Assembly: GCA_944390115.1 (NCBI GenBank)
Contig: CALXOW010000011.1
Span: forward strand, 431-64,430
Source: an uncultured Anaerobiospirillum sp.
GTDB lineage: Bacteria > Pseudomonadota > Gammaproteobacteria > Enterobacterales > Succinivibrionaceae
Length of the DNA: 64,000 bases
Direction: 5' to 3'
The notes under the pieces were generated by a model. That model did not search any database and was not told where the DNA came from. It saw only the letters and a program-made list of their open reading frames with translations. Shown here piece by piece: positions 9,025 through 26,032 of the stretch. A program made the position numbers and the translations under genes. Numbering within the stretch: the first letter of the stretch is position 1; each line of letters opens with the position of its first letter.

Positions 9025-9163
9025 TGGTTTTGACTGCTATCCCCATTGCTTTTTATGCCAAGGCAAGGAGCAATATGATATACTGAGAGTGGATTGAGCT
9101 GTTTTTACATTGACGGTGAGTCTTGATAGCATTAATCTGGGTAATGTTCATAAGGGATATATT

Positions 9164-10105
9164 ATGTCAAAGCCTAAGAAAAACAGGCGCTTTAACCGCT
9201 TTAATGATGCTTTTGTTAAATATATTTTGTCTAATAAACTTTTGTTGATTAACCTGCTTAATGCTATCTTCGCAGAGTTCAGACCTCCATGTGTTAAAGG
9301 TGATATCACTGATGTTACCTACGGAGATCGCGAATTAATAGCCTTTCACTCTAATGAAAAAGTTGGGCGTCTTGATATCTTTGCTACGACCAGTGAAGGT
9401 CAAATTATTGATATCGAGGTTCAATGCAGAGTAGATAATGCCCTTCTTGCACGCGATTTATTTTATTTTAGCAGAATTTACGCGACTCAAAAGATTGAGG
9501 GTAAAGAATATGATCAAGCAAAGCCTGTTATAATCATTAACCTGCTTAAAGAAAATCATTTTCATGATCGCGATGATTATATTAGATCCTATTCCATGCG
9601 TGACGACAAAACTTATGAGTTGATGAAAGATAATAAAATTTTCTTTATTTGTATCGAAGCTCGTAAGTGTGTAAAGCTTGGCGACAAGGACAAGAATCAC
9701 CTGATCCGATGGATGCATTTTTTTAGCAACATCTCGCAGAAAAACGACGCAGAGCTTGCTGAAAAAGATGAGGTTATCAAGCTGTTATTGGAGGCAGAGA
9801 AAATGTTCAAGCGCAATAACGAAAATATGAAGGAATATACTGCGCTCGAAGAGATGCAGGATGAGCTTGAGTGGGAAAAGCAGAAAAGCAAGAAGGAAAT
9901 AAAGGCGCGCGAGCAAGAGTTCAAGAAGGAAATGAAGGCCCGCGAACAAGAGCACAAGAAGGAGATGAGGGAGCGAAAGGAGCGCGAGCTGAACTCTAAG
10001 ATTGAATCGGTTAAAAAGATGCAGGCCGATGGTTTTACTCTTGATGCCATCAAGAAATACATCAATATTACCGATCGTCAACTGGCAAAAGCTGGTTTGT
10101 GTTAA
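9164..10105 (+). CDS. Rpn family recombination-promoting nuclease / putative transposase (YhgA-like, PD-(D/E)xK)
   Basis: The N-terminus MSKPKKNRRFNRFNDAFVKYIL, then GRLDIFATTSEGQIIDIEVQ (nuclease core), a lysine/glutamate-rich coiled region and the tail KKMQADGFTLDAIKKYINITDRQL are typical of this family. AAGGGA lies upstream of the ATG at 9164. Confidence 0.8.
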   Translation: MSKPKKNRRFNRFNDAFVKYILSNKLLLINLLNAIFAEFRPPCVKGDITDVTYGDRELIAFHSNEKVGRLDIFATTSEGQIIDIEVQCRVDNALLARDLFYFSRIYATQKIEGKEYDQAKPVIIINLLKENHFHDRDDYIRSYSMRDDKTYELMKDNKIFFICIEARKCVKLGDKDKNHLIRWMHFFSNISQKNDAELAEKDEVIKLLLEAEKMFKRNNENMKEYTALEEMQDELEWEKQKSKKEIKAREQEFKKEMKAREQEHKKEMRERKERELNSKIESVKKMQADGFTLDAIKKYINITDRQLAKAGLC

Positions 10106-10981: not shown

Positions 10982-12736
10982 TTAGAGCTTGGGGGGCTGC
11001 TTTTGCTGCTCTAAGGCTTGGGCCAGGGCCTGGCCTAACTTGGTGCGGGTGAGCAGCTGCTCGGGCTCTAAGGCGGTCGAAAAGGCGCGCTTGGCGGCCT
11101 CGGTGAGGGTCAGATAGGACGAGGCGGCGTTGGCATTGGCCAGGGCAATGGCCGCTTGCAGCTTGTTGAGCTTGGCGGCGTGACCGCTTTGCCTCTCCTT
11201 ATCCGTAACTAAGCTCGTGAGGTACTCATTGCCCGCCAGGACATTGGCGTCCATTAGGCTGCGGCGCAGGTCGCTCACCACCTTGGCACTTTGCTGGGCC
11301 GTGTCAAAGGTCGGAGTGTTGAAGATGGCGCTCGAGTCTTGCTCTTCCGTGACCTCATTGTGGTCGCTCATGGTGCTTTGCACGTGCTCGGACACTTGGT
11401 GCACCACCTGGGCACGCGCGTCGAGCTCGGCCTGGATAATGGCTCTGAGGCTAAAGGCGCCGGTGCGTAGCAGCTGCGGATTGCTGCCCGCGTGCTGGGC
11501 GCCCAGGGGCGCCAGGGCCAGGCACAGGCGCTTGGCGTTGGCCTCATAGCTGTTGCGTGCAAAGAGCTCCTTTAATTCTTTGAGGTCTGGGGCGGTGGTG
11601 ACTTGTGCCTTTAAGGCCTCAAACCACGGCATGACGTCTTCAGGCTGCGGCGGCGTGGTCAGATGATCGATGACGTCCTGGCCCACATCGATATAGGTGG
11701 CCTGAGCCCCTAAAAACTCCTCAAAAGTCGGCTGGTCGGTGGTGATGACGCTCACGCCGTGGCTGACCGCTTCTAAGGACATTTCGGGCGCGCAATCATA
11801 GGAGAGGGTCGGCATCACCAGGACACGCGTTTGTTTGAGGACGGCGGCGCGCTCGGTGGTGTAAGGGTAGATCGTCAGATAAGAGAAGTGGCTGAGGTCG
11901 TAGGACTTCTGGCCGCTCTTGCGGTCGTAGTACTCGTTGAGGCAATTCTCAAACTGGTTGGGCTCGCGCTCAAGTACGGCAAATTGGTAGTCAAAGAGGG
12001 TGCGGTCACTGCGGCATTGCTTGACCAGCTCTAAGAAGAGTCCCAGGCCATTCTCAAGGCTCGGATTCTCCAAGAGAATGAGCTTTCGTTTTGCAACATC
12101 ATCGGCCAGGCGCTTTAATTGCGCGCGCTGCTCTTTTAGGCTGCCTGGGTTGGCGCCTGGGTGGGTTAGGAGGGGACCGGTGACCTTGATAAAGGGGCCG
12201 ATGTAGGTGGCGGCGCGCCCTTGGGGCGTGACGTAGCTGTCAATTAAAAATTGGCTCGTGGCCAAAATGAGGTCGCTGTCGCGGAAGCTATAGTCAAAGC
12301 TCGGGTGCTCCAGCAGAACAAAGGCGGTCGGGAGGTGGCATTGGCGTGCCAGATTGAGGCAGGACATGGTCACGATATCCGAGCTTGAGGCAATCACTAA
12401 ATCAGGCTTAAAGCCGCAGATGATCGGCGTCATCTCATTGTAGAAATTGCGCTGCTCTAAGACCGTCATGTCACCTAGGCTAATCGAGGCCGTGGTGGTG
12501 TAAACGTAGGGGATATCGCCGTCTAAGATTTGAAATTTGGTGCTCGAGTGGGCAATGGGCTCGCGCACTACGGCGGCAACTGAGCTGGGCGCAGAGCTCA
12601 CGCGCACGGTCGAGGTCAAGACCACTAAGGCCGCACCATGATCGTGGAGCGCGGCAATCATATTGCGTACTTGCGCCGCCGCTGGGTTTAAATTGTCGTG
12701 CACGCAGCACGGGCTAATCCACAGAATCTTGATCAT
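10982..12736 (-). CDS. GT-B (GT4-like) glycosyltransferase paralog 6, with an extra C-terminal extension of about 170 aa
   Basis: The N-terminus MIKILWISPCCVHD is shared with the five upstream paralogs. The body ends at the family motif GSNPQLLRTG and is followed by a unique Ala/Gln-rich tail. Confidence 0.75.
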   Translation of the reverse strand: MIKILWISPCCVHDNLNPAAAQVRNMIAALHDHGAALVVLTSTVRVSSAPSSVAAVVREPIAHSSTKFQILDGDIPYVYTTTASISLGDMTVLEQRNFYNEMTPIICGFKPDLVIASSSDIVTMSCLNLARQCHLPTAFVLLEHPSFDYSFRDSDLILATSQFLIDSYVTPQGRAATYIGPFIKVTGPLLTHPGANPGSLKEQRAQLKRLADDVAKRKLILLENPSLENGLGLFLELVKQCRSDRTLFDYQFAVLEREPNQFENCLNEYYDRKSGQKSYDLSHFSYLTIYPYTTERAAVLKQTRVLVMPTLSYDCAPEMSLEAVSHGVSVITTDQPTFEEFLGAQATYIDVGQDVIDHLTTPPQPEDVMPWFEALKAQVTTAPDLKELKELFARNSYEANAKRLCLALAPLGAQHAGSNPQLLRTGAFSLRAIIQAELDARAQVVHQVSEHVQSTMSDHNEVTEEQDSSAIFNTPTFDTAQQSAKVVSDLRRSLMDANVLAGNEYLTSLVTDKERQSGHAAKLNKLQAAIALANANAASSYLTLTEAAKRAFSTALEPEQLLTRTKLGQALAQALEQQKQPPKL

Positions 12737-12744
12737 GGCGCCTC

Positions 12745-13974
12745 CTAAAAATGCACGTCGGGGAGCGCACTATCGCTCAATTGGTTGAGGTCGAGGGTGG
12801 TGACCTTCTTGGTCATCAGCGGCTCTAACACCGCGATCAAGCGGTACAGGGCATTATCCTGGGACAGCCGCTCCTTGGCTTGATGCAAGAGCTCGTCGCT
12901 ATTGTTGCTCAAAAAGACCTTGAGGGTCTCAACCCAGGGCCTAATTTCTTGGTCGTCAGGGATGGAGAGATAGTCTTGCTGACAGTGTTCGGGGGTATCA
13001 AGCAAGATGCCGCCGCCTGCGATCGCCTCACTTAGGCCGCCCGAGTTGGCAGCAATCACCGGAATATTGTTAAAGACCGCTTCGCTCGCGCCCCGGCCCC
13101 AGGGCTCAAACCATAATGAGGGTGCGACCAAAACCGAGGTGATAGCGTAGATTGGGCGCATATCCGCTTGCGGGGCGACCATATAGACGTTAGGAAAGTC
13201 CGCCGGGGTATAGGGGTGCACGTCAGGCCTACCCTTCTCATGGAGCAGGCCTAGGATTTCGGTGATGCGGGGCCCCACGGCCAGAAACTTCACCGAGGGT
13301 AGCTCACTTTGGCAGACCTTTGCGAGCTTGGCAAAGATCGCCACGCCCTTATGCTCGACCGGACTTAACATCGTGACAAAGATCTTTTGGTGCTGGGAGG
13401 CGGTGATATCGCGCCGGTCAAAGAACGCGCCCACCGGCACCATATTGATTTCGTCGCGCTCGGCGTAGAGCTTGGCGGTGGCGTGCGAATCAGTGACGAT
13501 GAGGTCGATATTAGGGAAAAGATAGTTGCCGTAGGTGCCGTGGCTTACCACGTACACGGTGGGCAGGCCGCGCGCCTTGGCCTCAGCAAAGCAGGTTTGC
13601 GCCAAGGGGCTGACCCCATAGCCCATCACGAGGTCGGGCCCGTACTCCTCGAGGATTTGGCGAAAGGTGTTAAAGAAGAGCTGGCATTCGGCGAGCGTCA
13701 TATTAAGCTCGCTCGTTTGCCCCACTCGAGGATATACGTAGTGGACATTGTCCTCATCGAAGATGAAGACATTGTTCGGGCTGTGATGGATGATTTGCTC
13801 GAGGTCGCCAAAGGCTTGCTGGGCGCCCTCAGCCTGATTGAAGATAAAGGTGGTGCAGGCCCATACCTCGTAGCCCTGGCGCGCCAGGCCCTTTAACATA
13901 TAGCGACAGTTGATGGCGGCACCTGATGAGGTGTCGTGTAGGCTAAAGGGCGAAATCCACAAGATCTTGGACAT
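12745..13974 (-). CDS. GT-B (GT4-like) glycosyltransferase paralog 5
   Basis: MSKILWISPFSLHDTSSGAA, plus a C-terminal-domain EX7E-type region FEPWGRGASEAVFNNIPVIAANSGGLSEA. GAGGTG lies upstream of the ATG at 13974, so the track start at 13992 is probably too early. Confidence 0.8.
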   Translation of the reverse strand: MSKILWISPFSLHDTSSGAAINCRYMLKGLARQGYEVWACTTFIFNQAEGAQQAFGDLEQIIHHSPNNVFIFDEDNVHYVYPRVGQTSELNMTLAECQLFFNTFRQILEEYGPDLVMGYGVSPLAQTCFAEAKARGLPTVYVVSHGTYGNYLFPNIDLIVTDSHATAKLYAERDEINMVPVGAFFDRRDITASQHQKIFVTMLSPVEHKGVAIFAKLAKVCQSELPSVKFLAVGPRITEILGLLHEKGRPDVHPYTPADFPNVYMVAPQADMRPIYAITSVLVAPSLWFEPWGRGASEAVFNNIPVIAANSGGLSEAIAGGGILLDTPEHCQQDYLSIPDDQEIRPWVETLKVFLSNNSDELLHQAKERLSQDNALYRLIAVLEPLMTKKVTTLDLNQLSDSALPDVHF

Positions 13975-14058
13975 AGACACCTCAGGTGGCAAAAAGGCAC
14001 GCCGCCAGGGGCCCCGGCGGTAGGCCGGGCCCCTAGCGGCCAGAAGGGCCTGTGGCCC

Positions 14059-15282
14059 TTAGACCAGGCTGCCGTTACGTAACAGCTGCGGGTTGTTGCC
14101 TGCGCGCTGGTCAAAGAGCGGCTTTAAGATTACCGCTAAGCGATTGGCGCTGAGGTTGACGTCAAAGCGGCGGCTGACCTTTTGGCAGCGCTCGGCGTAG
14201 TCCTCACTTAAGGCCATGGTCAGGCCCTTGATGAAGTTGGTCATGTCCTCAGTGCGCGGCACTACTTGATGGTCGTTTAAGCAGTAGGCTGGGATCTCCA
14301 CTAAGACACCGGCCTCGCCGATCGATTCAGCTAGGCCAATCTGATTGGTGGCTAAGACCGGAATGCCGCTTGCGACCGCCTCGCGTGCAATCGGGTTGAT
14401 GCCCTCAAAGGAGAGCGATGGGGCGACTAAGAGCTTGGTCTGAGCTAAGATGTCGCGGCTTGGGGTGGTCGGTGGCAGCACCTCAATGCTGTTTAAGGCC
14501 TCGGCGCTAAAAGCAGGCTCGCTGCTGCCCAGCTCATGGGCCTGAGCAATTTGCTCGGCAAATTGGCCTTGGTAGGTCTCATAGACCGTGAACTTAAAGT
14601 TTTGGGCCGCCGCTGGGTTCAGCTGGGCTAAGCGCGCAAAGATGGTCAGACCCTTATCGAGGCTTGGGTTGATCATGGTGATGCGCGTGCGCTCGACGCT
14701 CTCGCCCTCTTGCGGCTTGCTGCCCACTACCGGCAGGAAGGAGCCCGTGACCACGCAATTGATCTTTTGCATGGTGGCGTAGAGGTTAGCCGTCGCGGAG
14801 CTGTCGGTCACCACGACATCGATATTAGGGAAGTTAAAACGGCGTGGGGTGCCATCGAGTAAGGTGTAGACGGTTGGCAGGCCCCGGCGCTTGGCCTCGT
14901 CAAAGCACACCATCGAGAGCATGTCGGTGCCACAGCCCATTACGACATCGGGGCGGAAGGCGTTGATGATGGCGCAGAACTTGGCGTAGAAGTTACGCTG
15001 CTCTTGCGAGGTCATATCGCCCAAGTGGCGGCTCTTGGTGCGCATGTAGATGAAGTTGATATTGTTATCGTTGAGGTTAAACGAGTTCTCGTTGCCCTTG
15101 AGCTTTTCGTCTAAGTCGGTGAACATCGAGGTGCCGCTCTCTTGCAGGAAGTTGAGGGCACTTAAGCCGACAATGTCGACCTCGCGGGCCTTGAGCGATA
15201 ACAGCATATTGCGCCATTGGGTGGCGGAGGCGTTGGTCGTATCGTGTACGCTCAGTGGGCTAACCCAAAGCAGTTTAGGCAT
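14059..15282 (-). CDS. GT-B (GT4-like) glycosyltransferase paralog 4
   Basis: MPKLLWVSPLSVHDTTNASA; FEGINPIAREAVASGIPVLATNQIGLAES; C-terminal NNPQLLRNG. Confidence 0.8.
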   Translation of the reverse strand: MPKLLWVSPLSVHDTTNASATQWRNMLLSLKAREVDIVGLSALNFLQESGTSMFTDLDEKLKGNENSFNLNDNNINFIYMRTKSRHLGDMTSQEQRNFYAKFCAIINAFRPDVVMGCGTDMLSMVCFDEAKRRGLPTVYTLLDGTPRRFNFPNIDVVVTDSSATANLYATMQKINCVVTGSFLPVVGSKPQEGESVERTRITMINPSLDKGLTIFARLAQLNPAAAQNFKFTVYETYQGQFAEQIAQAHELGSSEPAFSAEALNSIEVLPPTTPSRDILAQTKLLVAPSLSFEGINPIAREAVASGIPVLATNQIGLAESIGEAGVLVEIPAYCLNDHQVVPRTEDMTNFIKGLTMALSEDYAERCQKVSRRFDVNLSANRLAVILKPLFDQRAGNNPQLLRNGSLV

Positions 15283-15314
15283 TTTGTTTTATTCCTCTAT
15301 GAACCACGCACTGG

Positions 15315-16520
15315 CTAATTGCGATAAAACTGGGGATGATTGCTCGCGCTCTTATGAAAGAGTGGGGCAAAGGCCGCGATCACGCGGTCGGTGGCGCGCT
15401 CAGGGGAGAGCAGCACCTTGGCCTGGGCAAATTGGGCGCTGTAATCGGTGTTTAAAATGGTCTTGAGACCCTCAACCCACGGTCTGATTTCCTCATCGGT
15501 CGGCAGCGACCAATGATCCTTGATGCAGTGCTCGGGAGCAGGCAGCGCCAGGCCACAACCGGCCATGCCTTCGGCTAGGCCCCCTGAGGTCGAGCACAAG
15601 ACCGGAATCTCGTTTAACGCCGCCTCCGAGGTGACGCGGCCCCAGGACTCAAACCAAAGCGACGGAGCGATTAAGGCGCGCGTGATGCGATAGACCGGAC
15701 GCATGTCCTTTTGCGAGCCCGCCAAATCGACATTGGGGAAGTCGGTCGGTTTAAACGGCTTAACCTCAGGCTGATCCTTTTCGTGGAGCAGGGTCACGGT
15801 CTGGGCAAAATGGGCGCGGCTGTTGATCACCAAGAAGCGTAGGTCCGGCAGCTCAGTTTGGCATACCTGGGCGAGCTTCGCGAAAATCGGCAACCCTTTT
15901 GATCCGACCGGATTGATAAAGGTGACGTACTTAGGCTCACGCTCCTTGCTCAAGAAGCGCTCGGGCGAGAAGAAGGCGCCGGTTGGGACCACATTGATGC
16001 GGCTTAACTTGGCGTAATAATCGCTGGTGGCTTGGCTATCGGTGATCACCAAATCAAAATTAGGGAAGGCAAATTGCTGGTGATTGCCATTGACCAAGAG
16101 ATAGACCGTCTTGATGCCCCGGCGCTTGGCCTCGGCAAAGCAGGTCAAGGAGGTCATACCAGGGCAATAGCCAAAGACGATATCAGGCTTAAACTCATCT
16201 AAGACCTGGAGGAAGGTCTGATAGAGCAGCTCGCCTTCATCCAAGGTGAAATCAAGCTCGTGACGGCTGTGGCAGCGCGTGTAGATATAGTGGATGCCAT
16301 TGTCGTCCAAGATAAAGGTCTGATGGGGATCTTGCTGGAGCTTCTGCTCTAAATCGCCAAAGGCCACCGTGCCCGACGGATTGTCAAAGACAAAGGAGGC
16401 ACAGGACCACACTTCAAAGCCGCGCTTGACTAAGCACTCGAGCATGTCCTTGGCGTCCACCGAGGCACCGGAGGACGTGTCATGCAAACTGTACGGAGAT
16501 AACCACAATACTTTAGGCAT
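15315..16520 (-). CDS. GT-B (GT4-like) glycosyltransferase paralog 3
   Basis: The start is placed at MPKVLWLSPYSLHDTSSGAS (ATG at 16520), 8 nt after the upstream paralog's stop. The body contains FESWGRVTSEAALNEIPVLCSTSGGLAEG. Confidence 0.8.
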   Translation of the reverse strand: MPKVLWLSPYSLHDTSSGASVDAKDMLECLVKRGFEVWSCASFVFDNPSGTVAFGDLEQKLQQDPHQTFILDDNGIHYIYTRCHSRHELDFTLDEGELLYQTFLQVLDEFKPDIVFGYCPGMTSLTCFAEAKRRGIKTVYLLVNGNHQQFAFPNFDLVITDSQATSDYYAKLSRINVVPTGAFFSPERFLSKEREPKYVTFINPVGSKGLPIFAKLAQVCQTELPDLRFLVINSRAHFAQTVTLLHEKDQPEVKPFKPTDFPNVDLAGSQKDMRPVYRITRALIAPSLWFESWGRVTSEAALNEIPVLCSTSGGLAEGMAGCGLALPAPEHCIKDHWSLPTDEEIRPWVEGLKTILNTDYSAQFAQAKVLLSPERATDRVIAAFAPLFHKSASNHPQFYRN

Positions 16521-16528
16521 TTTCTTTC

Positions 16529-17731
16529 CTAACGAGGCTTGAAGTGGGCAGCTTGCCGCTGCTGACACAGGGTGGTGAGCATATTAGCCAAACGGCCACT
16601 TAACTCAGTGATATCAACATTGCGCCGCGCCGCAGTGACCGATGCGCTCCAGTCTTCGCTCACCAGGCGCTTGAGCGCGTCGACCCACGGGGAGATTTCC
16701 TCGTCGGTCGGCAGCTCGGTGAAGTCTTGCACGCAGTGCGCGGGCGGCTCGAGCACGATGCCACCGCCATTGATGGCCTCCGGAATGCCGCCAATCTGAG
16801 AGCCCAAGACCGGAATACCGTTTAGTAGCGCTTCACTCGCGATGCGGCCCCAGGACTCGTACGCGAGGGACGGTACCAGCACCACCTTCGCGCGCGCGTA
16901 CACCAAGCGCATATCGTTGGTGGCATTGGTCATGAGAACGTTCGGGAAATCCTGCGCGGAATATGGTTTAACCGTAGAGCCCTGCTCATGCAAGTACGGC
17001 AGGCCTGCGACAAAGTTGGAGCGCGAGTTGACCACCAAGAACTTAAGCTCAGGCAAGGCACTTTGGCAGACTCGGGCGAGCTTAGCAAAGATGGCGAGGC
17101 CCTTACTGAAGTCGGGATTGACCAAGGTGATAAAGCTGGGCTGACGCTCGGGGGCGACCACGTACTTGGGCTCGATGAATTGGCCGATGGGGGTGCAGTT
17201 GATGTGCTCGCGCTCGGCGTAGAGCTGGGCCGTGGTGTGCGAGTCGGTCAGCACCAAATCAAGATGCGGGAAGGTAAAGTGCGCATGCTTGCCGTTCATC
17301 ACGAAATAGACCGTGGCAATGCCCCGGCGCTGAGCCTCAGCAAAGCAGGTATAGGAGTCCATGCCGGTGCCGTAGCCCACCACCAGATCGGGCTTATAGG
17401 CCGTTAGGACATCGAGGTAGCGCTCAAAGAACTCATTTTGCTCGCTGACCGTGCGCTCCATCTCAGCGGTATGCTGATTCTTCAAATAGATGTAGTGGAT
17501 GCCGCGATCGTCAAACTGGAACAGCTTGGCCTGAGGGTTGCGCGCAAAGAGCTGCCCTAAATCGCCAAAGGTGGCGTTACCGCCATAGGGGCGATCAAAG
17601 ACAAAGGTGGCAAAGGACCACACGGTAAAGCCGCGTTGCTGCAAGGACTCTAAGATCGCGCGGCAGTGAATTGACGCGCCCGAGGTGATGTCATGCAGGC
17701 TATAAGGCGACATCCAAAGGATCTTAGGCAT
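16529..17731 (-). CDS. GT-B (GT4-like) glycosyltransferase paralog 2
   Basis: MPKILWMSPYSLHDITSGAS; YESWGRIASEALLNGIPVLGSQIGGIPEA. Confidence 0.8.
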   Translation of the reverse strand: MPKILWMSPYSLHDITSGASIHCRAILESLQQRGFTVWSFATFVFDRPYGGNATFGDLGQLFARNPQAKLFQFDDRGIHYIYLKNQHTAEMERTVSEQNEFFERYLDVLTAYKPDLVVGYGTGMDSYTCFAEAQRRGIATVYFVMNGKHAHFTFPHLDLVLTDSHTTAQLYAEREHINCTPIGQFIEPKYVVAPERQPSFITLVNPDFSKGLAIFAKLARVCQSALPELKFLVVNSRSNFVAGLPYLHEQGSTVKPYSAQDFPNVLMTNATNDMRLVYARAKVVLVPSLAYESWGRIASEALLNGIPVLGSQIGGIPEAINGGGIVLEPPAHCVQDFTELPTDEEISPWVDALKRLVSEDWSASVTAARRNVDITELSGRLANMLTTLCQQRQAAHFKPR

Positions 17732-17739
17732 AGCGGCTC

Positions 17740-18942
17740 CTAACGATTAAAGTGGAGGTGGTCACGGGCGCGCTCATCAAGGTACGGCTGTACCACCGCG
17801 TTAAAGCGCGCTAAGCCATTAGAGGCAGCCAAGCGCTGCTGGGCCGCACTAACCTGCTCTGACCAGTCTTCATTGAGCAAGCGCTCTAAGGCGACCACCC
17901 ACGGCTCGATTTCCTCAAGAGACGGCAGCGACAGATAGTCGTTGCGGCAGTGCTCAGGTACCGGCAGATTAATGCTCGCGCCGCCCGCAGCCTCCGCCAG
18001 GCCCCCTGAGTTGGAAGCGAGCACTGGAATGCCGTTATAGACGGCTTCGCTCACCACGCGGCCCCACGACTCAAACCATAAGGACGGAGCCACTAACACG
18101 CGGGTCGCGGCGTAGATCGGCTTCATATTGGTGGTCGCCGGGGTCATATCGACGTTGACGAAGTCCTGCGGGCTGAGCGGATGGACATCGCGCTGGTCCT
18201 TTTCATGGAGGTATTGGACGTTCTCAGCGAAGTTGCCGCGCGAGTTGACCACCAAGAAGCGCACCTCCGGCAGGCGGCTTTGGCACACCAAGGTCAGGCG
18301 CGCCAAAATCGCCAACCCCTTTTCAAAGCTTGGGTTGATCATGGTGACGTACTTAGGGTGGCGCTTTTTGGCGACAAAGCGCTCGGGAACAAAGAAGGCC
18401 CCGATCGGGAGGGCGCGGATGCGGTCACGCTTAAAGTAGAGGTCAGCGGTGGCCTGCGAGTCCGTTAAGAGCAGGTCGACATCAGGAAAGGAGAAGCTGC
18501 CGTGGTTGCCGTTTAACACCGGATAGATGGTGGTGATGCCCCGGCGCTTGGCCTCAGCAAAGCAGGTCATAGTGAGCATGCTGGTGCCAAAGGCCATACA
18601 TAAATCAGGGGCAAAGCGGTCTAACACCTCGCGCAGCAAGGTAAAGAAGACCTCTTGCTCAGCGGCACTTTGCTCGCCCTCAAAGGTCGAGTGGCAACGC
18701 TGGTAGATATAGTGGATGCCGTTATCGTTGAGCTCAAAAATCGGCTTAGCGCTCACGGCCAATTTGTCTTGGGCCTGGGTGAAGAGCTGGGCGCCGCTAG
18801 GCATATCGAAGATAAAGGACGATAAGGCCCAGACCTCATAGCCTTGGGCGACCAAAGCTTCCAAGAGATATTTGCAATTGATGGAGGCCCCCGATGAGAT
18901 ATCGTGCAGACTGTAGGGCGACATCCAAAGTATCTTAGGCAT
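17740..18942 (-). CDS. GT-B (GT4-like) glycosyltransferase paralog 1 (first in the operon)
   Basis: MPKILWMSPYSLHDISSGAS; FESWGRVVSEAVYNGIPVLASNSGGLAEA. An alternative ATG lies at 18951. Confidence 0.8.
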   Translation of the reverse strand: MPKILWMSPYSLHDISSGASINCKYLLEALVAQGYEVWALSSFIFDMPSGAQLFTQAQDKLAVSAKPIFELNDNGIHYIYQRCHSTFEGEQSAAEQEVFFTLLREVLDRFAPDLCMAFGTSMLTMTCFAEAKRRGITTIYPVLNGNHGSFSFPDVDLLLTDSQATADLYFKRDRIRALPIGAFFVPERFVAKKRHPKYVTMINPSFEKGLAILARLTLVCQSRLPEVRFLVVNSRGNFAENVQYLHEKDQRDVHPLSPQDFVNVDMTPATTNMKPIYAATRVLVAPSLWFESWGRVVSEAVYNGIPVLASNSGGLAEAAGGASINLPVPEHCRNDYLSLPSLEEIEPWVVALERLLNEDWSEQVSAAQQRLAASNGLARFNAVVQPYLDERARDHLHFNR

Positions 18943-19167
18943 CTGAGCCATCCTGTTAGATCAAAACCACAAGCGCATCGAGCTTCCAGCGCGTAAGCAA
19001 CCCAAACTATAGACCGCTAAGCTTAGCGCAAGCACAGCAAGCCAAGCCAGCTTAGCAAGTCAAACGCAAGTTCAGCCCGCCAACCGGCGTGTAATTAATC
19101 GCAAGCATTGTAGCAAAGATCTCAGGCCTAGTCTGACCGCGCCATCCTCAGCACGCTCAACCCAAAC

Positions 19168-19356
19168 CTATTCCTCATAATCATCGTCGTCACGCCACGA
19201 GGCGGGCAGCACGAGATGGCCATTGCGCATTTTGGCCTCCACAATGAGCGGATGGTCGTGATGAAAAATCCGGTGCTTGCCCGGCGCTTGAGCAGCGGTG
19301 GGCTCTAAAGTAACGCTGTCTGGGGCCTGATCAAACGTATGTGGATTCTGTTTCAT
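19168..19356 (-). CDS. Small hypothetical protein (62 aa) with acidic DDDDYEE C-terminus
   Basis: GGAG lies 6 nt upstream of the ATG at 19356 (MKQNPHTFDQ...). I recognise no family. Confidence 0.4.
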   Translation of the reverse strand: MKQNPHTFDQAPDSVTLEPTAAQAPGKHRIFHHDHPLIVEAKMRNGHLVLPASWRDDDDYEE

Positions 19357-20329
19357 ATTCTTCTCCATTGTCAGCGCACTACGTGCGCTTTCTCTAGCGC
19401 GAAAAAAAAATCGCGCCACTCACTGCCCCCAAATTTTACGGCACCTGGCGTGGCGATAGTTCACTCTGCGGCGGCGCACCGTGCCCCATATGGAGCAAGT
19501 ACGGCCCGTAGTGGGGGCCAGCGCAACTTGTGCCCGTGCACATTGCACATCGCGCGATCGACCAAGATCACGGGGCCCAGCAGGGGCTAAACAGGGGCTC
19601 AGAGCTGCCGCAGTTCACAAAATTAACTGACCGCAATCAGGCGTCTCCTAGCGTTTAAAGCGGTGCCCGGCGCGGCGCGCGGGGCTTTAGGATCGGAGCA
19701 CCTCGCAAATCAGGTCAGCGCGAGCGCGCTCTAATTTTTTTTAAATTTGTGGTCATGGGCACACTTAGGGCAGTTTGACTCAAAATTTAAGTATCGCACT
19801 TGTCCGAACACAGGGCAAAAGCGCTTATCTATCAGAAGATAAAACATGCCAATTATCGCCCTCGGTAGCTAGGCGCGACGTTGGAGCGCTCGGACTCAAG
19901 CGCGGCGCGCTCGTGTGTCGCGCACGAACGACGGCACAATGGGGCAGCAAGCGTAATTTTGTGCCCATGCCCCGCACCGGCCCTTGGCTTATTTATCGTG
20001 AAAATTATGAGTTGCGCGCATGCTTTCGCAAGTTGCGGATTTTTGCGGTGCAACAAGGCCGCAACCTCCGCACGATCCTCGTATCTTGGCCCAATCAGGC
20101 TCAGGCCTTAGTTGGCCTAGCCTGACTAGATGTACGAATTAACGTGACTGAGCCGCCTAGTTGACCTGTCCGCCTAAGTTGTTTTTGGTATCTATAATGA
20201 TTTGCATCCCCACAATGTCCTAATTAGTGGGGCTAAAGTGGCTCAGAAACGGTCTGAGCAAAATCAGTCGATCTGAGCAATCTCAGGAGAGAAGAGCAGC
20301 TAATCTGGTGCTGCTTTTGAGAGGATTGG

Positions 20330-22648
20330 ATGGCAAAAGAGAAGCCAAAACCTCAGGAGGCGTCGGGCGGCAAGCTCAGCTTGCTGCCGATCTGTACCGA
20401 CTTAGAGGATCCCTGTTCTATGGCCTGGACCCAAGGCTTAAGTCGGATGGAGCAACGTAACTTAGCCCTCAAGGCCTTAAGCCCCAAGGACCAATTTGAG
20501 CTCTTGGTGGCCTTAAGCGCGGGATTAAGTCATTGGCGTTGTGCCCAATTGGTCAAATGCAGTCCCCGCACCGTGACCATGTACGTCGAGTACTGCAATG
20601 AAACGATGGCCGGAGGCTTATTAGCCCAAGGCGTGAGTCTGCAAGAAAGCGAAACGGTCGCCAGTGCCTGCGACCTCTTTGAGCTCTTGGTGCAGCATAT
20701 CTTTGAGCTGGGGCCTCGCTCGAGCACGAGTGGCGTCAGTTACATCTTAGCCCAAGAACTCCACACCATGGCCAAGACGCCGCCGCCCTGCGCAGCTACG
20801 CCCAGCATAGCAGCCCGCTGTGACGTGCGCCGGGACCTAAGTTATGACGCCCGCTTGGACGTCAGCTCTGCCGCTCCCACAGGAAAGTTAGCAAGAACCA
20901 ACTCAGTCCTCCACCAGGGTAACGATCTAGGACAGAGGACTAAGCTGGAAGATCAGCAGCCCCTAAAGCAAACTGACCATAGGGCTATTATGCCCCAGCT
21001 GGATACCGTCGGCGCAAGATGTGACATGATTGTGCGCGCAAGCTCACATGATACGCAGCCTTTTATTACTAACCGTATACAGTTGACTTACGACCGGCAG
21101 AAAGATACCCGTATACAGCCGAACTCAGCGCCAGAACTGGCTGATAATGGGGCTTGCGCCAACCACTCCAGTGCTAACTCTTCCCCTGAAAAGGTCGCGG
21201 ATAGGCCGATCTGTATACAGGAAAAGGCCGCCAGGCCGCATGGGGACGCCATTTCTGACCCAAATGACGCGGAACCTCAGGCGGAATTTGAGGTTATCAA
21301 TTACAAATTAATTGGGGCTCCGGTCGGGTTAGAAGGCATCGTGCACTGGGCGGTCCAAGTTACCGCTTCAGCGGGCTTTGACGGCGCTTCGTGTACCGAA
21401 AATCCCGCCCCAGCGCGCTTTCCGTGTACCGGCAGCCCGTGCCTCGACCTCAATCCGTGTACCGGTGGCCCGGTCCTAGCCCCCAGTCCGTGTACCTGTA
21501 ATCAGGCCGCATGGGTGGAACCGTGTACCGGCAACCAGGAGTCAGAGCGCTATCCGTGTACCTGGAACTTAGCGCTAAGTCTGGATCCGTGTACCGAATT
21601 TGCGGCACCGTGCCTTAATCCGTGTACCGACTTTGCGGCGCCTGAGCCTAATCCGTGTACCGACTTTGCGGCATCGCGCGCTAATCCGTGTACCGATTTT
21701 GCGGCGCCGCGCCCTAATCCGTGTACCGAGAGCCCGGCCATCAGCGTGAGAGCGTGTACCAACCTTGAGAGGCCCAAGCTCGATTCTGACGCCATTCCCC
21801 GCACGATGGGCCTGACCTCCCGTGCCGTTAAAACGGACTTAGATCACGTTTTGGCTAAAACCTGTATACAGGGGCTCCACCCCGAACCCATAGATTATGG
21901 GCTTGAGGGGGCGGATTCGTGGAACTCTGTTTTGGTACCTGGCTGTTTAGTAATTGATTTACTAAACAAACAGATACCACAGACCGTAAGCTCTGGGGCT
22001 GGGACCGAAGAGAGTCGCCTTCGTAACCTCCAGCGCCTACTCTGGGACTATTGGTTGCGCCACCACGGCCAAATCAAGCGCTATTTGCAGCAGTTACAGG
22101 AAGGGGGCGTGCAGGGGCTTTTGATGGTGCCCAGCAACTTCAAGCGCCAAGCGTCGCTGGCGGCCTATCATGAGCACGCGCAGCGCTGCCAAGCCCAAGC
22201 TGAGCTCAGTGAGACCTTAGGAAGCACGGCGCAAGCCTTTGCCCACTTAAGTCCGGTGCTGCAACAGGGTGTGGTGTGGGAGCTCTTGCTCTCGCAATGG
22301 TACGAAGGTGTGGTCCGTTACTTAGGCCCCAGCCTCAGCCTGCGCCTTGATAAGGTGCGCAGCTTAAGGCGGGTGCGCGCTGACAATATGGCTAAGCTCA
22401 AGCAAGCTCTGACTCAGCGTCGCCCAACGCTGAGCCTAGCAGCAGAGGAACAAGGCTGCTTTGAGCCCGAGCTCAAGGAGCTCGACCACAAGCCGTCGTA
22501 TCGCGGCTTTATGGCGCATCACCAGCCGAGGCCATTGCTTGATGATCTGCGCTGGGAGCGCCCGTCGCATAAGCTCAACAGCGCGCTCAAGCAGTTTATG
22601 CGCGATCCGTCCTGTCGGCGCTATCGGGCGGGCCTTAACGCCTCATAG
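20330..22648 (+). CDS. Hypothetical 772-aa protein: N-terminal helix-turn-helix-like segment, central 12 x 11-aa xPCTxxxxxxx repeat, unknown C-terminal domain
   Basis: GAGAGGA lies upstream of the ATG. LSAGLSHWRCAQLVKCSPRTVTMYVEY looks like a transposase- or terminase-type HTH. The 2.3-kb ORF is open, and the repeats are described separately. Confidence 0.65.
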   Translation: MAKEKPKPQEASGGKLSLLPICTDLEDPCSMAWTQGLSRMEQRNLALKALSPKDQFELLVALSAGLSHWRCAQLVKCSPRTVTMYVEYCNETMAGGLLAQGVSLQESETVASACDLFELLVQHIFELGPRSSTSGVSYILAQELHTMAKTPPPCAATPSIAARCDVRRDLSYDARLDVSSAAPTGKLARTNSVLHQGNDLGQRTKLEDQQPLKQTDHRAIMPQLDTVGARCDMIVRASSHDTQPFITNRIQLTYDRQKDTRIQPNSAPELADNGACANHSSANSSPEKVADRPICIQEKAARPHGDAISDPNDAEPQAEFEVINYKLIGAPVGLEGIVHWAVQVTASAGFDGASCTENPAPARFPCTGSPCLDLNPCTGGPVLAPSPCTCNQAAWVEPCTGNQESERYPCTWNLALSLDPCTEFAAPCLNPCTDFAAPEPNPCTDFAASRANPCTDFAAPRPNPCTESPAISVRACTNLERPKLDSDAIPRTMGLTSRAVKTDLDHVLAKTCIQGLHPEPIDYGLEGADSWNSVLVPGCLVIDLLNKQIPQTVSSGAGTEESRLRNLQRLLWDYWLRHHGQIKRYLQQLQEGGVQGLLMVPSNFKRQASLAAYHEHAQRCQAQAELSETLGSTAQAFAHLSPVLQQGVVWELLLSQWYEGVVRYLGPSLSLRLDKVRSLRRVRADNMAKLKQALTQRRPTLSLAAEEQGCFEPELKELDHKPSYRGFMAHHQPRPLLDDLRWERPSHKLNSALKQFMRDPSCRRYRAGLNAS
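21073..21118. repeat. Two copies of CCGTATACAG, 36 bp apart
   Basis: Copies at 21073-21082 and 21109-21118. Both contain the GTATAC palindrome, and CCGTATAC is one mismatch from the CCGTGTAC array core. Confidence 0.7.
21211..21220. repeat. Perfect 10-bp palindrome CTGTATACAG
   Basis: Seen directly; the same 10-mer recurs at 21862-21871. Confidence 0.7.
21390..21760. repeat. Twelve copies of the invariant octamer CGTGTACC at exactly 33-bp spacing (iteron-like array inside the CDS)
   Basis: GTGTACC starts at 21391, 21424, 21457, 21490, 21523, 21556, 21589, 21622, 21655, 21688, 21721 and 21754. Ten copies read CCGTGTACC; the first reads TCG.. and the last GCG... The spacers range from near-identical (last four units) to unrelated. 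Confidence 0.9.
21862..21871. repeat. Perfect 10-bp palindrome CTGTATACAG (second copy)
   Basis: Seen directly, about 100 bp after the last array unit. Confidence 0.7.
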
Positions 22649-22721: not shown

Positions 22722-23396
22722 TTAGGCCTTGAGCCAATCGGCCGGGAACATGGCGGTGAGGAAGCCAGCCCACAGGTCGCTGGTTATGATATCGAAATGC
22801 TCAAATTCCTCATCCCACATCGGCGTGGTGCGCATATGCGCGCTCCAAGGACGGCCATCGGAGGTGCGGAAGATCACCATATAGGCTACGTAGAAGCGGT
22901 GGAACCAGACCTGAGCCTCATCACTGGGCTCTAAGACCTTAAGGCCATGCTCAGGGACGACTTCCGTGCTGGAGCCGATCATGAGCTCACGCACGTGGCG
23001 GTAGAAGAAATCGAGCAAGCCGTAGCCCACAAAAAGACGATAGGTCTCAGCATCCATGGACTGGGACTGCTCAGGCAGCAGCATAAAGTTAAGGCAAGCA
23101 AGGCAGCGCTTATACAGGTCCGGCGGGAGCACGCCGATGGCGGTGCGGAAGTTCTTAAAGCGCTGATAGCAGACTGGATCGAGGTTTTTGAGTTTCTTAA
23201 AGTAGCGGCGCAGCTCTTGGTTGCGCTTAGGCTCCACCGTGAAGTCAAATTTAGCGGCATCGGCCTCAATAAAGCCCTTATGGGCGGCCCAAAAGGCCTG
23301 ATAATTTTGCGGCTCATGGCAGCGCGCAATGAAGGCCTGCTATTGCGGCTGTGTTTCCATTATGGGAGATTGCTTAATCTCGCTGAACAAGCTCAT
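22722..23396 (-). pseudogene. Paralog 5 of the unrecognised FKKIK-DP family, interrupted by an in-frame TAG at codon 19
   Basis: GAGGAG lies 6 nt upstream of the ATG at 23396. The frame reads MSLFSEIKQSPIMETQPQ-TAG(23340-23342)-QAFIARCHEPQNYQAFWAAHKGF...EPKRNQELRRYFKKLKNLDPVCY. Family similarity continues upstream of the track's GTG start at 23237. Confidence 0.6.
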
Positions 23397-23628
23397 GGCA
23401 GCTCCTCAAAAAAAAAATAAGAAGGCAAAGACGGTAACCCCCAGAGCGGCTGGGCAGCAGTGTGGGCATAAGCCCTACGCACCCAGCAGGTCAAGGCCGG
23501 GCTTGGTCTCACTGCTTGGGCCCCCAGGCTTCAGCACTAAGTTAATGTTGAAGCCTGGCGCGAGGGGGTAAGCCCCAAACCAGACAGGCTTATTGTGGGG
23601 CTCTTGACTGGATTGGGCTCAGCACTTG

Positions 23629-24327
23629 TTAGGACTGAGCGGCCTGAGCGGAGCGCTCGCGCAGTAAGAAGTGGAGATTGCGCAGGCGCACGTCGAAGTT
23701 GAGCTTAGTGCGCTCGATGCTTTGCTGGCTGCGTGCGTCACCTGTAAAGAAGGAGGCTAAGTTCTCTGTCCAAGTCTTGCCCTCATCGTTGTGAAGCAAG
23801 CACAGATAGGCGATGGCACCGCGCTTGAGCCAGGCTTCCTGAGCGGCAGAGAGGGGCTTGGCCACGAGATAGTCGAAGTTATAGTCCTCAGGCATCAGGT
23901 GCTCATCCTCAATCTGACCAAACAGGTCTTGGACAATCAAGGTGCAGCAGCGTGCCCGCAACGCCGCTGATGGCGTCAGGCTTTTATCTTCGGCTATGAT
24001 TTGGTCGAACGGTGCGCCTAAGAGCTCTTCGGAGAAGACCTTTGGGTCAATGAGGCCAATGCCGGTGCGAAATGGTAGCAGCTCACGGTAGAGCACTGGG
24101 TCAAAGGCCTTGATTTTCTTAAACCAACGGCGCACTGCGTGGGCCTGCTTGCGCGGCACCAAGATATCGAACTGTTGGCCATCGTGCTCCAAGAAATCGC
24201 GGTAGGAGGCCATGAGTTCGGCATAGGCCTGAGGCTCACGCAAGGCATCGACGTAGCTTGCGGCCGCATCCCAGCCGTCCTGCTTGTCGAGCTCGTCTTG
24301 CGCAATGATGAAGTTGGTGTTGGTCAC
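23629..24327 (-). CDS. Paralog 4 of the FKKIK-DP family (233 aa)
   Basis: The start is re-set to the GTG at 24327 (GGAGGA 7 nt upstream), because the longer track ORF overlaps the upstream gene. Motif: VPRKQAHAVRRWFKKIKAFDPVLYRELLPFRTGIGLID. Confidence 0.65.
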   Translation of the reverse strand: MTNTNFIIAQDELDKQDGWDAAASYVDALREPQAYAELMASYRDFLEHDGQQFDILVPRKQAHAVRRWFKKIKAFDPVLYRELLPFRTGIGLIDPKVFSEELLGAPFDQIIAEDKSLTPSAALRARCCTLIVQDLFGQIEDEHLMPEDYNFDYLVAKPLSAAQEAWLKRGAIAYLCLLHNDEGKTWTENLASFFTGDARSQQSIERTKLNFDVRLRNLHFLLRERSAQAAQS

Positions 24328-24380
24328 GGCAAATCCTCCAAAAGAAATGGAAATCAGTCTGGGCGCTCCTGCGTGCGCTT

Positions 24381-25037
24381 TTAGGCTTTGCTCAAGGAAG
24401 ATAATACGTTGATGGCCTCTAGCTGAGCGGCGGCAAGGAACCAGTTTCGGTCCAAGCCAATTTTCGGGTGCTCCTCTTCCTCTTCTACTGCGAGACTCCA
24501 ATGAGCGGGATCGCAATCTGCAAGCAACGGGAGATAGGCATTGGCAAAGCAGCGTGTCCAGTAAAGTACCTGCGGATTTTGCAACAATTGGAGTAGATTG
24601 CTTGGGTCGCGCTCAATTTTGCCTTTAAACAATTCCAGCATATATTTTTGGTAGGAGCTTTGGAACGGTTCCAATATGACCAAGAAGATCAGAGCATGAG
24701 CGGCGCTAGCTGTGATGAGACCTGCCTTGAGCCCATCACGTACGTCCTTTAGACCTTTAAGGATGTAATCGCGTAAGGACTCATCAAGCAATCCAACAGC
24801 GGTACGCATTGACTTCAGCAGCTTGAATGCCGGCGGGTCGATCTCTTTGATCAATTTGAAGATGCGTTTGACCTGGATGATGTCCGCAGCTGCGACCTTT
24901 CTCTCAAATTGGGCGGCATCTTCCTGGAAGAAGGCCAAGCATTTAGCTCTACGCTCTGCAAAATCAGGGGCATTTAGGGTTTGCTGCACGAGGTCTTGGA
25001 AGTCGGTAGCGGAATCTTGATTCTGGAGATCTGTCAT
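24381..25037 (-). CDS. Paralog 3 of the FKKIK-DP family (218 aa)
   Basis: Motif: AAADIIQVKRIFKLIKEIDPPAFKLLKSMRTAVGLLD. Confidence 0.65.
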   Translation of the reverse strand: MTDLQNQDSATDFQDLVQQTLNAPDFAERRAKCLAFFQEDAAQFERKVAAADIIQVKRIFKLIKEIDPPAFKLLKSMRTAVGLLDESLRDYILKGLKDVRDGLKAGLITASAAHALIFLVILEPFQSSYQKYMLELFKGKIERDPSNLLQLLQNPQVLYWTRCFANAYLPLLADCDPAHWSLAVEEEEEHPKIGLDRNWFLAAAQLEAINVLSSLSKA

Positions 25038-25053
25038 GGTGTTTGGCCTAGTC

Positions 25054-25758
25054 TTAAGCTGAGAATTGTTGGCGGCGCGTCAGCGTCGCTTGGATAGTGG
25101 GGCGGCAGGAGCCGCACGCCCAAAACATTCTGTCCAGGAGCCGGATGTTCGCGGGGCACTTCGGGTCGATTAGCTGTGCGCGGTCCGCAGTTGGTCCGTG
25201 CAAGAGGTCATTGTAGGCGATGTAGAAGCGCAAAAGCCAAAGGCAGGCCTTATCGTCGCGCGCCAGGCGCTGCACCAAGGCTAAGGGAAAGAGGTTGCTG
25301 TGGTTACGCTGCTCTGGTACCTCAAATTCCATGATTTGATTGTAGAGGGCGCTCACCAGCTGATAGGAGATTACGTGGTGCACGTGGCGCGCGTAGTCAG
25401 GATCCTCCTGGGGCCGCTCATGGGCTTTGGGTGCGGCCTGAAGGCGACTGGTCAGCTCAGGAAAGCTGGCTGCAAACCAGCGCTCATCGATGAGCCCTAA
25501 GGCGCACTGAAAGCGGTGCAGCTCTTGGTACAGGGCTGGGTCATAGCGCTCGAGCGCCACCATAAAGGTCGTGACTTGCTCTTGGCGCTTGGGCGGCACC
25601 TCGCGGTAAAAGCGCGCTTCCTCTTGCTGCAAAAAGGCTTGGTCGGCCTGCTGCCACTTCTGGCGGGCGCGCGGGCTATCCTGGCGGCGCGAGTAGCGGC
25701 TCGCTTGCAGGCCTCGTATGCCGCTTAAGCCACGTTGGAAGAGAGCCCAAATCAGCAA
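25054..25758 (-). CDS. Paralog 2 of the FKKIK-DP family (234 aa, TTG start)
   Basis: GAGGAAG lies 6 nt upstream of the TTG at 25758. A diverged motif reads VPPKRQEQVTTFMVALERYDPALYQELHRFQCALGLID. Confidence 0.6.
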   Translation of the reverse strand: MLIWALFQRGLSGIRGLQASRYSRRQDSPRARQKWQQADQAFLQQEEARFYREVPPKRQEQVTTFMVALERYDPALYQELHRFQCALGLIDERWFAASFPELTSRLQAAPKAHERPQEDPDYARHVHHVISYQLVSALYNQIMEFEVPEQRNHSNLFPLALVQRLARDDKACLWLLRFYIAYNDLLHGPTADRAQLIDPKCPANIRLLDRMFWACGSCRPTIQATLTRRQQFSA

Positions 25759-26032
25759 GATTAACTTCCTCTGCTAAGGTGAGAGTTCGGTTGGACGGCC
25801 CACTGGTTACGCCGTTAACGCTGGAGCACTACTATCGCCGTAGTGCTGCTAACTTGGTAGCGCTCAAGGCCCCACCTTTCTGGCGGACGGCCGCTTTCAG
25901 GCAGCCTATTGCTTGAGGCCCGCATGCTGGCCTAGCTTGTGGTGCCGTGCCATCTGCCTGCACTCAGCGCGCTGTGACGCCTAGACTTATGGCGCGCCGC
26001 TGAGCCTAAAGGCGGCCTCAGCGTTGGGACCT

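Follow-up and report, generated by a model that had tools for sequence, protein, structure and literature searches.

A short DNA element conserved independently of the encoded peptide within an orphan Anaerobiospirillum gene: candidate protein-binding sites in a coding sequence

Why should a short DNA word stay unchanged, copy after copy, in the middle of a translated gene whose surrounding codons diverge? The question is raised by a stretch of 64,000 nucleotides from an uncultured Anaerobiospirillum sp. (contig CALXOW010000011.1, positions 431 to 64,430; hereafter the window), in which the heptamer GTGTACC recurs with an exact period of 33 bp within an open reading frame (ORF) of 772 amino acids (aa), here called gene X. 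All 12 copies, the first starting at 21391 and the last at 21754, lie on the + strand and in frame, and the peptide unit is xPCT followed by 8 residues. The gene and its array are as follows.

20330 to 22648, + strand: gene X, a 772-aa ORF of an orphan family, with conserved N- and C-terminal domains and a middle part (aa 151-555) that appears unconstrained
21390 to 21760, + strand: array of 12 GTGTACC-type sites, consensus a-T-C-C-GTGTAC-C-G, exactly 33 bp apart, with the invariant core CGTGTACC

A preliminary description of this locus had reported 12 octamers at 33-bp spacing in a coding sequence (CDS), and counts, shuffles, Tandem Repeats Finder (TRF) and the ORF frame all agree with it. 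GTGTACC occurs 15 times in the window compared with 2.7 expected, a number reached in 0 of 100 shuffles, and TRF called arrays of period 33. CGTGTACC was read in all 12 copies. The codon ahead of TGT is CCG in 10 of the 12, TCG in copy 1 and GCG in copy 12, which bears out copy by copy the earlier statement that CCG-TGT-ACC shows no synonymous change and that only its first base varies. The spacers, described before as ranging from near-identical to unrelated, have a mean identity of 0.47 between units (range 0.27-0.85); units 7-10 are close to identical, and only the motif is shared among units 1-6.

Ortholog DNA came from four to five clades, and all comparisons rest on metagenome assemblies. 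The window clade comprises L001 and L004-L009, with 66-98% protein identity for the members included in alignment A1; the further clades are L002, the group of L010, L012 and L003 (38-39% identity), and L014. In eight orthologs of the window clade the array holds 8-18 units, always with a period of 33 bp, and the proteins P0009 and P0010 differ in length by exactly 7 units (77 aa). Among the 101 array units of these orthologs, 64 of them distinct, G-TGT-ACC is fixed with a single ACA exception. The codon ahead of TGT may be CCG, TCG, GCG, CTG or ACG, by which five amino acids (P, S, A, L and T) are used, yet its third base is G in 64 of 64 distinct units. In contrast, a conserved Pro six codons downstream in the same units is written as CCT (8), CCG (8), CCA (7) or CCC (4), and the Ala codons GCC, GCG and GCA are all used. 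TGT makes up 21.5% of the Cys codons in 35 ORFs of the window (ATA, which recurs below, 2.4% of the Ile codons), and the remaining Cys codons of gene X show a TGT:TGC ratio of 7:9.

The two ends of the protein behave quite differently from the part that carries the array, as was seen from the ratio of nonsynonymous to synonymous substitution rates (dN/dS). The ends form two conserved domains, the first of them modelled with AlphaFold2 (AF2).

20330 to 20779, + strand: conserved N-terminal helical domain of gene X (aa 1-150), recognized by dN/dS, invariant columns and an AF2 domain model
21995 to 22645, + strand: conserved C-terminal all-helical domain (aa 556-772), recognized by dN/dS (0.06-0.23) and alignment

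In the N-terminal domain dN/dS is 0.13-0.27, and for aa 151-555 it rises to 0.6-1.1 in the four comparisons of greater divergence (the two closest orthologs have too few substitutions for a stable ratio in that part). Between the window and L006 or L007, dS in the array reaches 0.5-0.7 without any change in the motif. In every clade the reading frame remains open, and lengths differ only by multiples of three. The AF2 model of the whole protein is too poor to use (predicted local distance difference test, pLDDT, 29.6), and aa 150-540 have no predicted structure. The open frame, a dN/dS near 1 and the lack of a predicted fold together indicate that the middle region is translated while its peptide is close to neutral.

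These comparisons strongly support the view that selection acts on the nucleotide sequence of the array rather than on its peptide. The preliminary description had proposed the same, and its suggestion to look for freely varying PCT codons in orthologs has now been followed: the codons do not vary synonymously, rare codons are retained, amino acid changes are tolerated and dN/dS is near 1. Its alternative, a cysteine-bearing structural repeat homogenised by gene conversion, is excluded by invariant synonymous sites beside diverged flanks. Gene conversion can neither keep an 8-mer constant between unrelated spacers nor act between the single-copy sites of different species, and the mean spacer identity, the dN/dS near 1 and the absence of predicted structure speak against such a repeat as well. 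The locus is an unusually clean natural case of dual coding, in which 1.2 kb are kept translatable while only a DNA word is conserved, written in rare codons and maintained through amino acid replacements. The combination of codon-phase-independent flanks, rare codons and a dN/dS near 1 around invariant words is a reusable approach to cis elements hidden in CDS.

The array is accompanied by a second class of sites, which the preliminary description missed and which appears from the orthologs to be the older, family-wide motif. All four GTATAC hexamers of the window (at 21075, 21111, 21213 and 21864) lie within gene X, and bring its sites to 16, that is 12 CGTGTACC and 4 GTATAC.

21071 to 21082, + strand: GTATAC-type site 1, aaccGTATACag, encoding N-R-I-Q
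21107 to 21118, + strand: GTATAC-type site 2, acccGTATACag, encoding T-R-I-Q, 36 bp after site 1
21209 to 21220, no strand assigned: GTATAC-type site 3, with the perfect 10-bp palindrome CTGTATACAG at 21211-21220, encoding I-C-I-Q
21860 to 21871, no strand assigned: GTATAC-type site 4, with the perfect palindrome CTGTATACAG at 21862-21871, encoding T-C-I-Q, about 100 bp past the array

In each clade the corresponding part of gene X contains 3-7 GTATAC sites, always read as NGT-ATA-C. The codon that begins with N specifies R, R, C, C in the window clade, R, G, G in L002, C, S, R, C, C, G in L010 and R, C, G, R, G, G, R in L014; the hexamer is thus kept through changes among TGT, AGT, CGT and GGT in clades at 38-66% protein identity. 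The sites are spaced by 36 and 102 bp in the window, by 33 and 129 bp in L002, by 33, 36, 36, 33 and 33 bp in L010, and by 33, 36, 36, 66, 288 and 12 bp in L014, and the spacers are otherwise unrelated. The succession 33, 36, 36 is common to L010 and L014 although the sequences in between share nothing.

The two classes of sites also have similar flanks. Among 37 distinct GTATAC sites, A(-4) is present in 28, C(-2) in 32 and G(+7) in 26, and a purine is preferred at +6. Among the 64 distinct array units, indexed on the G of GTGTAC, A(-4) occurs in 47, C(-2) in 52, C(-1) in 62, C(+6) in 63 and G(+7) in 46. The G of the core stands in codon position 2 in the GTATAC class and in position 3 in the GTGTAC class, and owing to these different phases the shared flanks cannot stem from a shared peptide. 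On the strength of this likeness, we take the two classes to be a single element of about 12 bp, ANCNGTRTACNG. Two positions distinguish the array variant CCGTGTACCG from CCGTATACGG, a perfect palindrome of L010. A single GTGTACY unit followed downstream by GAnTTTGCnGC is present in each of L002, L010 and L014, which indicates that the window clade amplified an ancestral single site.

The element is confined to gene X. Outside it, GTATAC does not occur in 150 kb of Anaerobiospirillum DNA (the window without 20330-22648, together with the flanks of L001, L002, L007, L010, L013 and L014), compared with about 11.6 sites expected from dinucleotides. The related words GTATAA, GTATAG and GTATAT each occur 12-15 times in strand counts, and an estimated expectation that allows for the rarity of GTATA is about 4-5 sites. 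Nor does the element occur elsewhere in the sequence at hand, the 0.9-kb region upstream of gene X included. ANCNGTRTACNG is a precise element that would define a testable protein-DNA (or protein-RNA) recognition system, in a gut genus dominated by uncultivated members and without annotated relatives.

What could read such an element? The explanation that we prefer, and to which we give an even chance overall, is that the array consists of binding sites in double-stranded DNA (dsDNA) for a protein, situated in a linker that is translated but free of constraint. The middle part of gene X would be translated with its amino acids essentially free to change, and would carry elements of about 12 bp, ANCNGTRTACNG, under selection as nucleic acid. 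The ancestral elements would have been GTATAC sites at intervals of 33-36 bp, each with its palindromic core flanked by C..G, and the window clade would have amplified the half-consensus variant CCGTGTACCG to 8-18 copies at 33 bp. Most likely, these elements would be recognized by a sequence-specific dsDNA-binding protein. The simplest candidate for this reader would be the invariant N-terminal domain of gene X itself, which resembles a helix-turn-helix (HTH). Since the element is found nowhere else in the sequence at hand, not even upstream of the gene, the simplest model is that the gene X product binds its own gene.

The putative HTH comprises aa 52-99 and includes WRCAQLVKCSPR, the only protein segment invariant in all clades, which lies within helices 68-75 and 79-99. 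In the AF2 model of the N-terminal domain alone, an all-helical bundle of moderate overall quality (pLDDT 61.4), aa 30-100 reach a pLDDT of 75-86 and form helices 39-49, 52-63, 68-75 and 79-99. The Pfam family GerE (LuxR-type) matched with E = 0.079 for the full protein and E = 0.016 for the N-terminus, at 13-15 bits compared with a gathering cut-off of 23.5 bits. Foldseek gave no significant match in PDB and BFVD (none with E < 0.4), and many of the weak matches were HTH regulators. An HTH nature of this domain is plausible on these grounds, and the designation "HTH protein" in the preliminary description is weakly supported, at scores below the gathering cut-off.

If the sites were occupied side by side, a large nucleoprotein complex would form over about 0.8 kb of the gene's own sequence. 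Its most economical consequence would be autogenous control, by a roadblock to elongation or by a titration sink, tuned by the copy number of the sites. Alternatively, the nucleated structure could affect the flanking island of orphan genes. The placing of cis sites within the gene of the presumed binding protein follows a known logic, which would here be met in an orphan, genus-restricted chromosomal locus. If the array is read by the gene's own product, the logic of a site inside its own gene, familiar from the replicons of phages and plasmids, would extend to a chromosomal locus that is conserved, and the protein and its site would form an orthogonal binding pair, with a target word otherwise absent from the 150 kb examined.

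Several observations weigh against this explanation. The spacings of 33 and 36 bp amount to 3.1 and 3.4 helical turns, so that the sites do not lie on one face of the helix; as neither makes a whole number of turns, protomers with a fixed footprint each seem likelier than same-face phasing. The promoter region, the usual target of an autoregulator, lacks the element. Scores for an HTH stay below threshold (GerE E = 0.016-0.08, best Foldseek E = 1.3). The flank A(-4) has no symmetric T(+9), a partial asymmetry which would also fit a reader at the RNA level. Repeat copy numbers may be imprecise because all the relatives are metagenome assemblies. In unit 4 of L004, GTTTACC (TTT for TGT, giving PFT) leaves a gap of 66 bp, which may reflect true loss or a fault of assembly. 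A metagenome variant, P0011 (498 aa), is frameshifted within the array and continues with IRVPTL repeats in the +1 frame; for this frameshift and for the L004 unit, either real decay or errors in repeat assembly may be responsible.

A bolder form of the same explanation is that gene X constitutes a previously unknown kind of self-contained chromosomal protein-DNA module, in which a DNA-binding protein stores a variable number of its own sites in its own neutral linker as a nucleation centre, and GTATAC has been purged elsewhere for the sake of orthogonality. We regard this as a tentative proposal, less probable than the general explanation from which it starts. What such a centre might serve is put forward with similar reserve: it could, for example, silence or organise the flanking orphan multigene island, or act in a cryptic replication or segregation process.

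Among the readings that differ in kind, the one that survives best is a signal at the RNA level, although we find it unlikely. GUAUAC and GUGUACC in the mRNA would be read by an endoribonuclease (e.g. a MazF-type toxin), an RNA-binding protein or a small RNA (sRNA), which would give multi-site post-transcriptional control of gene X. The constraint indeed falls on nucleic acid and not on the peptide, the sense strand carries all 12 motifs of the array, the flank at A(-4) lacks symmetry, and a strong hairpin, which the preliminary description missed, lies just downstream of the array and has one G-U-compatible change on the sense strand.

21933 to 21979, no strand assigned: imperfect 47-bp palindrome or hairpin, its 21-nt arms separated by 5 nt, encoding CLVIDLLNKQIP

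The hairpin occupies the most AT-rich patch of gene X (60 bp, 70% AT), about 170 bp downstream of the array, and is encoded with the rare codons TTA, CTA and GTA. Its RNA has a minimum free energy of -24.5 kcal/mol (z = -6.1), and that of the minus strand is equally strong. It is conserved in the window clade (at 7670-7716 in L006 and 7794-7838 in L007), and L007 shows a compensatory pair, T-A to C-G, accompanied by the amino acid changes C to R and K to D. In an alignment of nine sequences 86% of the cells are paired, compared with 29-48% in slid controls, and two pairs are changed on both sides. No stable hairpin was found in the L010 clade (z = -0.4), where an AT-rich patch (85% AT) lies about 650 bp from the sites; such a patch was not found in L002 or L014.

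Other features of the sites argue for DNA. The core is palindromic, perfectly so in CTGTATACAG and CCGTATACGG, C(-2) has a symmetric partner in G(+7), and the extended sites in L014 and L002 form inverted pairs, which means that both orientations are in use. The array forms no RNA structure beyond that of shuffled sequences (z = -0.81) and matches no Rfam family, and the same-strand orientation of its 12 copies follows trivially from tandem duplication. Complementarity of sRNA to the motif was found only at chance level. The only other copy of the 9-mer CCGTGTACC in the window, at 1500-1508 on the - strand, is within chance expectation (about 0.5); it is intergenic, upstream of an ORF of the SIR2 family (534-1268). 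On these points we favour recognition of DNA over that of RNA with fair assurance; this level of recognition, the identity of the binding protein and the physiological output outlined above are all inferred.

An iteron-type replication origin or a centromere inside an initiator or partition gene, after the logic of lambda O/ori, P1 and F sopC, had been the first choice of the preliminary description and seems improbable to us. The resemblance is real as an analogy. In lambda ori, four 19-bp iterons lie in the part of the O gene that encodes the inter-domain linker, and an AT-rich stretch and a palindrome come after the repeats. Gene X has a similar order: directly repeated short sites, confined to this gene, stand in the linker-coding part of a CDS with a conserved helical N-terminal domain (the candidate DNA-binding domain), and the AT-rich palindrome follows. 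Unlike lambda O, gene X shows neither a sequence relationship nor a detectable fold relationship to that initiator, and it is chromosomal and syntenic rather than part of a phage. Unlike lambda ori, it has 16 sites with a core of 8-12 bp at distances of 33-36 bp, and no helicase-loader partner.

As a statement of membership, the origin or partition reading fails on homology, synteny, DnaA boxes, GATC and GC skew. Of the hallmarks of an iteron origin, an array of direct repeats with a conserved core is present, and a mobile replicon and a known initiator family are missing. No similarity to the Rep, O, TrfA, RepA, ParB or TerS families was detected in Pfam, PHROGs, NCBIfam and PDB, and tblastn found no homolog of gene X among 72,556 plasmids and 50,697 phage records. 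The locus is syntenic in the three clades for which enough flank was read, and the AT-rich palindrome is missing or weak in the other clades. A chromosomal oriC is not indicated either: there is no DnaA box TTATCCACA (with at most one mismatch) within 7 kb of the locus, GATC has background density without enrichment, and the cumulative GC skew, a check that the preliminary description had proposed, runs monotonically across the locus with no switch. As regards partition, the neighbours are GT4 glycosyltransferase genes and orphan paralogs, in which no ParA- or ParM-type NTPase, helicase or helicase-loader was called and in which Pfam and NCBIfam gave no ATPase, ParB or ribbon-helix-helix (RHH) protein.

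Other systems share individual traits with gene X. The pac site of phage P1 consists of repeated hexamers, a word of the restriction or methylation type, in pacA, the gene of the small terminase, and other pac sites are located in terS genes. Gene X likewise has several hexamer copies within the gene of a recognition protein of HTH type (putative in its case), but no terminase large subunit or phage genes are nearby, no PHROG matched, and the copies are far more numerous and regularly spaced. Centromere arrays such as F sopC (12 x 43 bp) and R1 parC are bound cooperatively by one protein, and parS inside spo0J/parB is a precedent for a cis site constrained within a CDS. The gene X array is similar in its approximately 12 tandem direct repeats with a short conserved core, and differs in lacking a ParA-type ATPase, homology to ParB or RHH proteins, and a plasmid location. 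The terminal repeats of IS21, Mu and Tn7 resemble it in having several direct short sites a few helical turns apart and a reader with an N-terminal HTH (again putative in gene X), whereas the gene X sites are inside the ORF, not at the ends of an element, and are found without an inverted partner array or a transposase domain.

The pattern of a motif at 33 bp arises by chance in many unrelated viral and metagenome repeats and is in itself not special. Two viral contigs with three CGTGTACC at 33 bp proved to be unrelated plain tandem repeats, a pattern of three GTATAC in viral contigs was swamped by chance or by AT-rich repeats, and a scan of metagenome DNA yielded more than 120 unrelated 33-bp tandem repeats. 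An unrelated metagenome contig (L195) contains three GTGTACC and a degenerate fourth at 33 bp with diverged spacers (approximately 130-260, - strand), upstream of an IS21-like HTH ORF, and a viral contig of 25.9 kb (L015) contains ACGTGTAC at alternating spacings of about 11 and about 22 bp (6583-6700, - strand); both are probably coincidental. What sets gene X apart is only that an invariant core, diverged spacers and conservation across species occur together.

Somewhat less probable than an origin or centromere is that GTATAC is the target of a restriction-modification (R-M) system or of a methyltransferase, avoided throughout the genome, and that its copies in gene X act as a methylation-dependent epigenetic switch or sensor. 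The deficit of GTATAC outside gene X given above fits this idea, and other 6-bp palindromes are absent too, as is typical of restriction pressure: the window contains no CCGCGG (28 expected), CCCGGG (17), TTCGAA (12), GAATTC (12) or ACTAGT (7). The avoidance of CCGCGG and CCCGGG is clade-specific, which suggests several R-M pressures. These other palindromes are avoided in gene X as well. GTGTACC is not palindromic, GTGTAC is not avoided elsewhere (34 compared with 30 expected), no methyltransferase or nuclease gene was identified beside gene X, and the shared flanks and the 33/36-bp spacing would stay unexplained. An R-M pressure on GTATAC is compatible with protein-binding sites in dsDNA and does not exclude them.

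The weakest reading, a Cys-Thr repeat of 11 residues with a structural, metal-binding or glycosylation role, kept uniform by gene conversion and perhaps a substrate of the neighbouring GT4 glycosyltransferases, would suit the open frame, the indels in multiples of three, the invariant C-T dipeptide and the five adjoining GT4 genes, but is very improbable in view of 64 distinct units without synonymous variation beside freely varying Pro and Ala codons, the minor Cys codon TGT throughout, the G kept ahead of it through P, S, A, L and T, the GTATAC sites encoding C, S, R or G, a dN/dS near 1 and the absence of a predicted fold.

The searches for relatives indicate that the gene X family is a genus-restricted orphan. 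Profiles of Pfam, PADLOC, PHROGs, NCBIfam and PDB gave nothing except the sub-threshold GerE/LuxR match, and the C-terminal domain has no match in PDB, Pfam, PHROG or NCBIfam. Among 5.8 billion proteins, a word-indexed search returned 15 clusters. When 1.84 billion representatives were searched exhaustively with an HMMER profile, 5 family members were recovered, all from Anaerobiospirillum, and the seven weaker matches inspected were low-complexity repeats of eukaryotic type. In the genome collection, relatives were found only in metagenome-assembled genomes (MAGs) of Anaerobiospirillum (Succinivibrionaceae), and a protein scan of the metagenome contig collection found none. Literature searches on the motif strings and on Anaerobiospirillum gave only primers and microbiome surveys.

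One further site may exist in the conserved N-terminal part of the gene.

20393 to 20400, + strand: possible extra site TGTACCGA in the N-terminal P-I-C-T-D segment, weak

This site reads GTGTACCGAC in L006 and L007 and is absent from L002 and L014. The peptide CTDLEDPC is itself conserved, and constraint on the protein is inseparable here from constraint on the site.

Gene X appears to have a fixed chromosomal place. In the window clade, the L010 clade and L014, the order is 4-5 GT4 glycosyltransferase paralogs, gene X and orphan paralogs, followed by rsmC, rsmA/ksgA, pdxA, surA and lptD. In the window, five tandem paralogs of GT4 type, each about 400 aa long, lie at 12745-18951 (- strand), two of which weakly match the Pfam family 'GT4-conflict'; four or five such genes are kept upstream of gene X in most clades examined. 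Between this block and gene X, the gene-free stretch at 19420-20329 is unusually long (about 0.9 kb, and about 1.7 kb in the L010 clade); its identity to the L006 and L007 sequences is 71-79%, and Rfam gave no match for it. A conserved small ORF of 66-83 aa (19168-19419, - strand) is situated at its far end. On the other side of gene X, 22722-26956 (- strand) encodes five tandem diverged paralogs of 170-307 aa, 23-27% identical, with the motif 'KKIKxxDPxxY...FRTAxGL'. This family is genus-restricted and has neither a name nor a Pfam domain, and it therefore offers no clue to function. The entire stretch from 4 to 27 kb consists of orphan genes. Between pepA and the GT4 block there are three large ORFs on the - strand without a Pfam or NCBIfam match (4024-7449, 7461-8306 and 10982-12736, of 1141, 281 and 584 aa, respectively) and a gene of the PD-(D/E)XK 'transposase' family (9110-10105, + strand). 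In L013, an rve transposase is found between pepA and gene X, at the place where the window has the larger block of genes that includes the GT4 paralogs.

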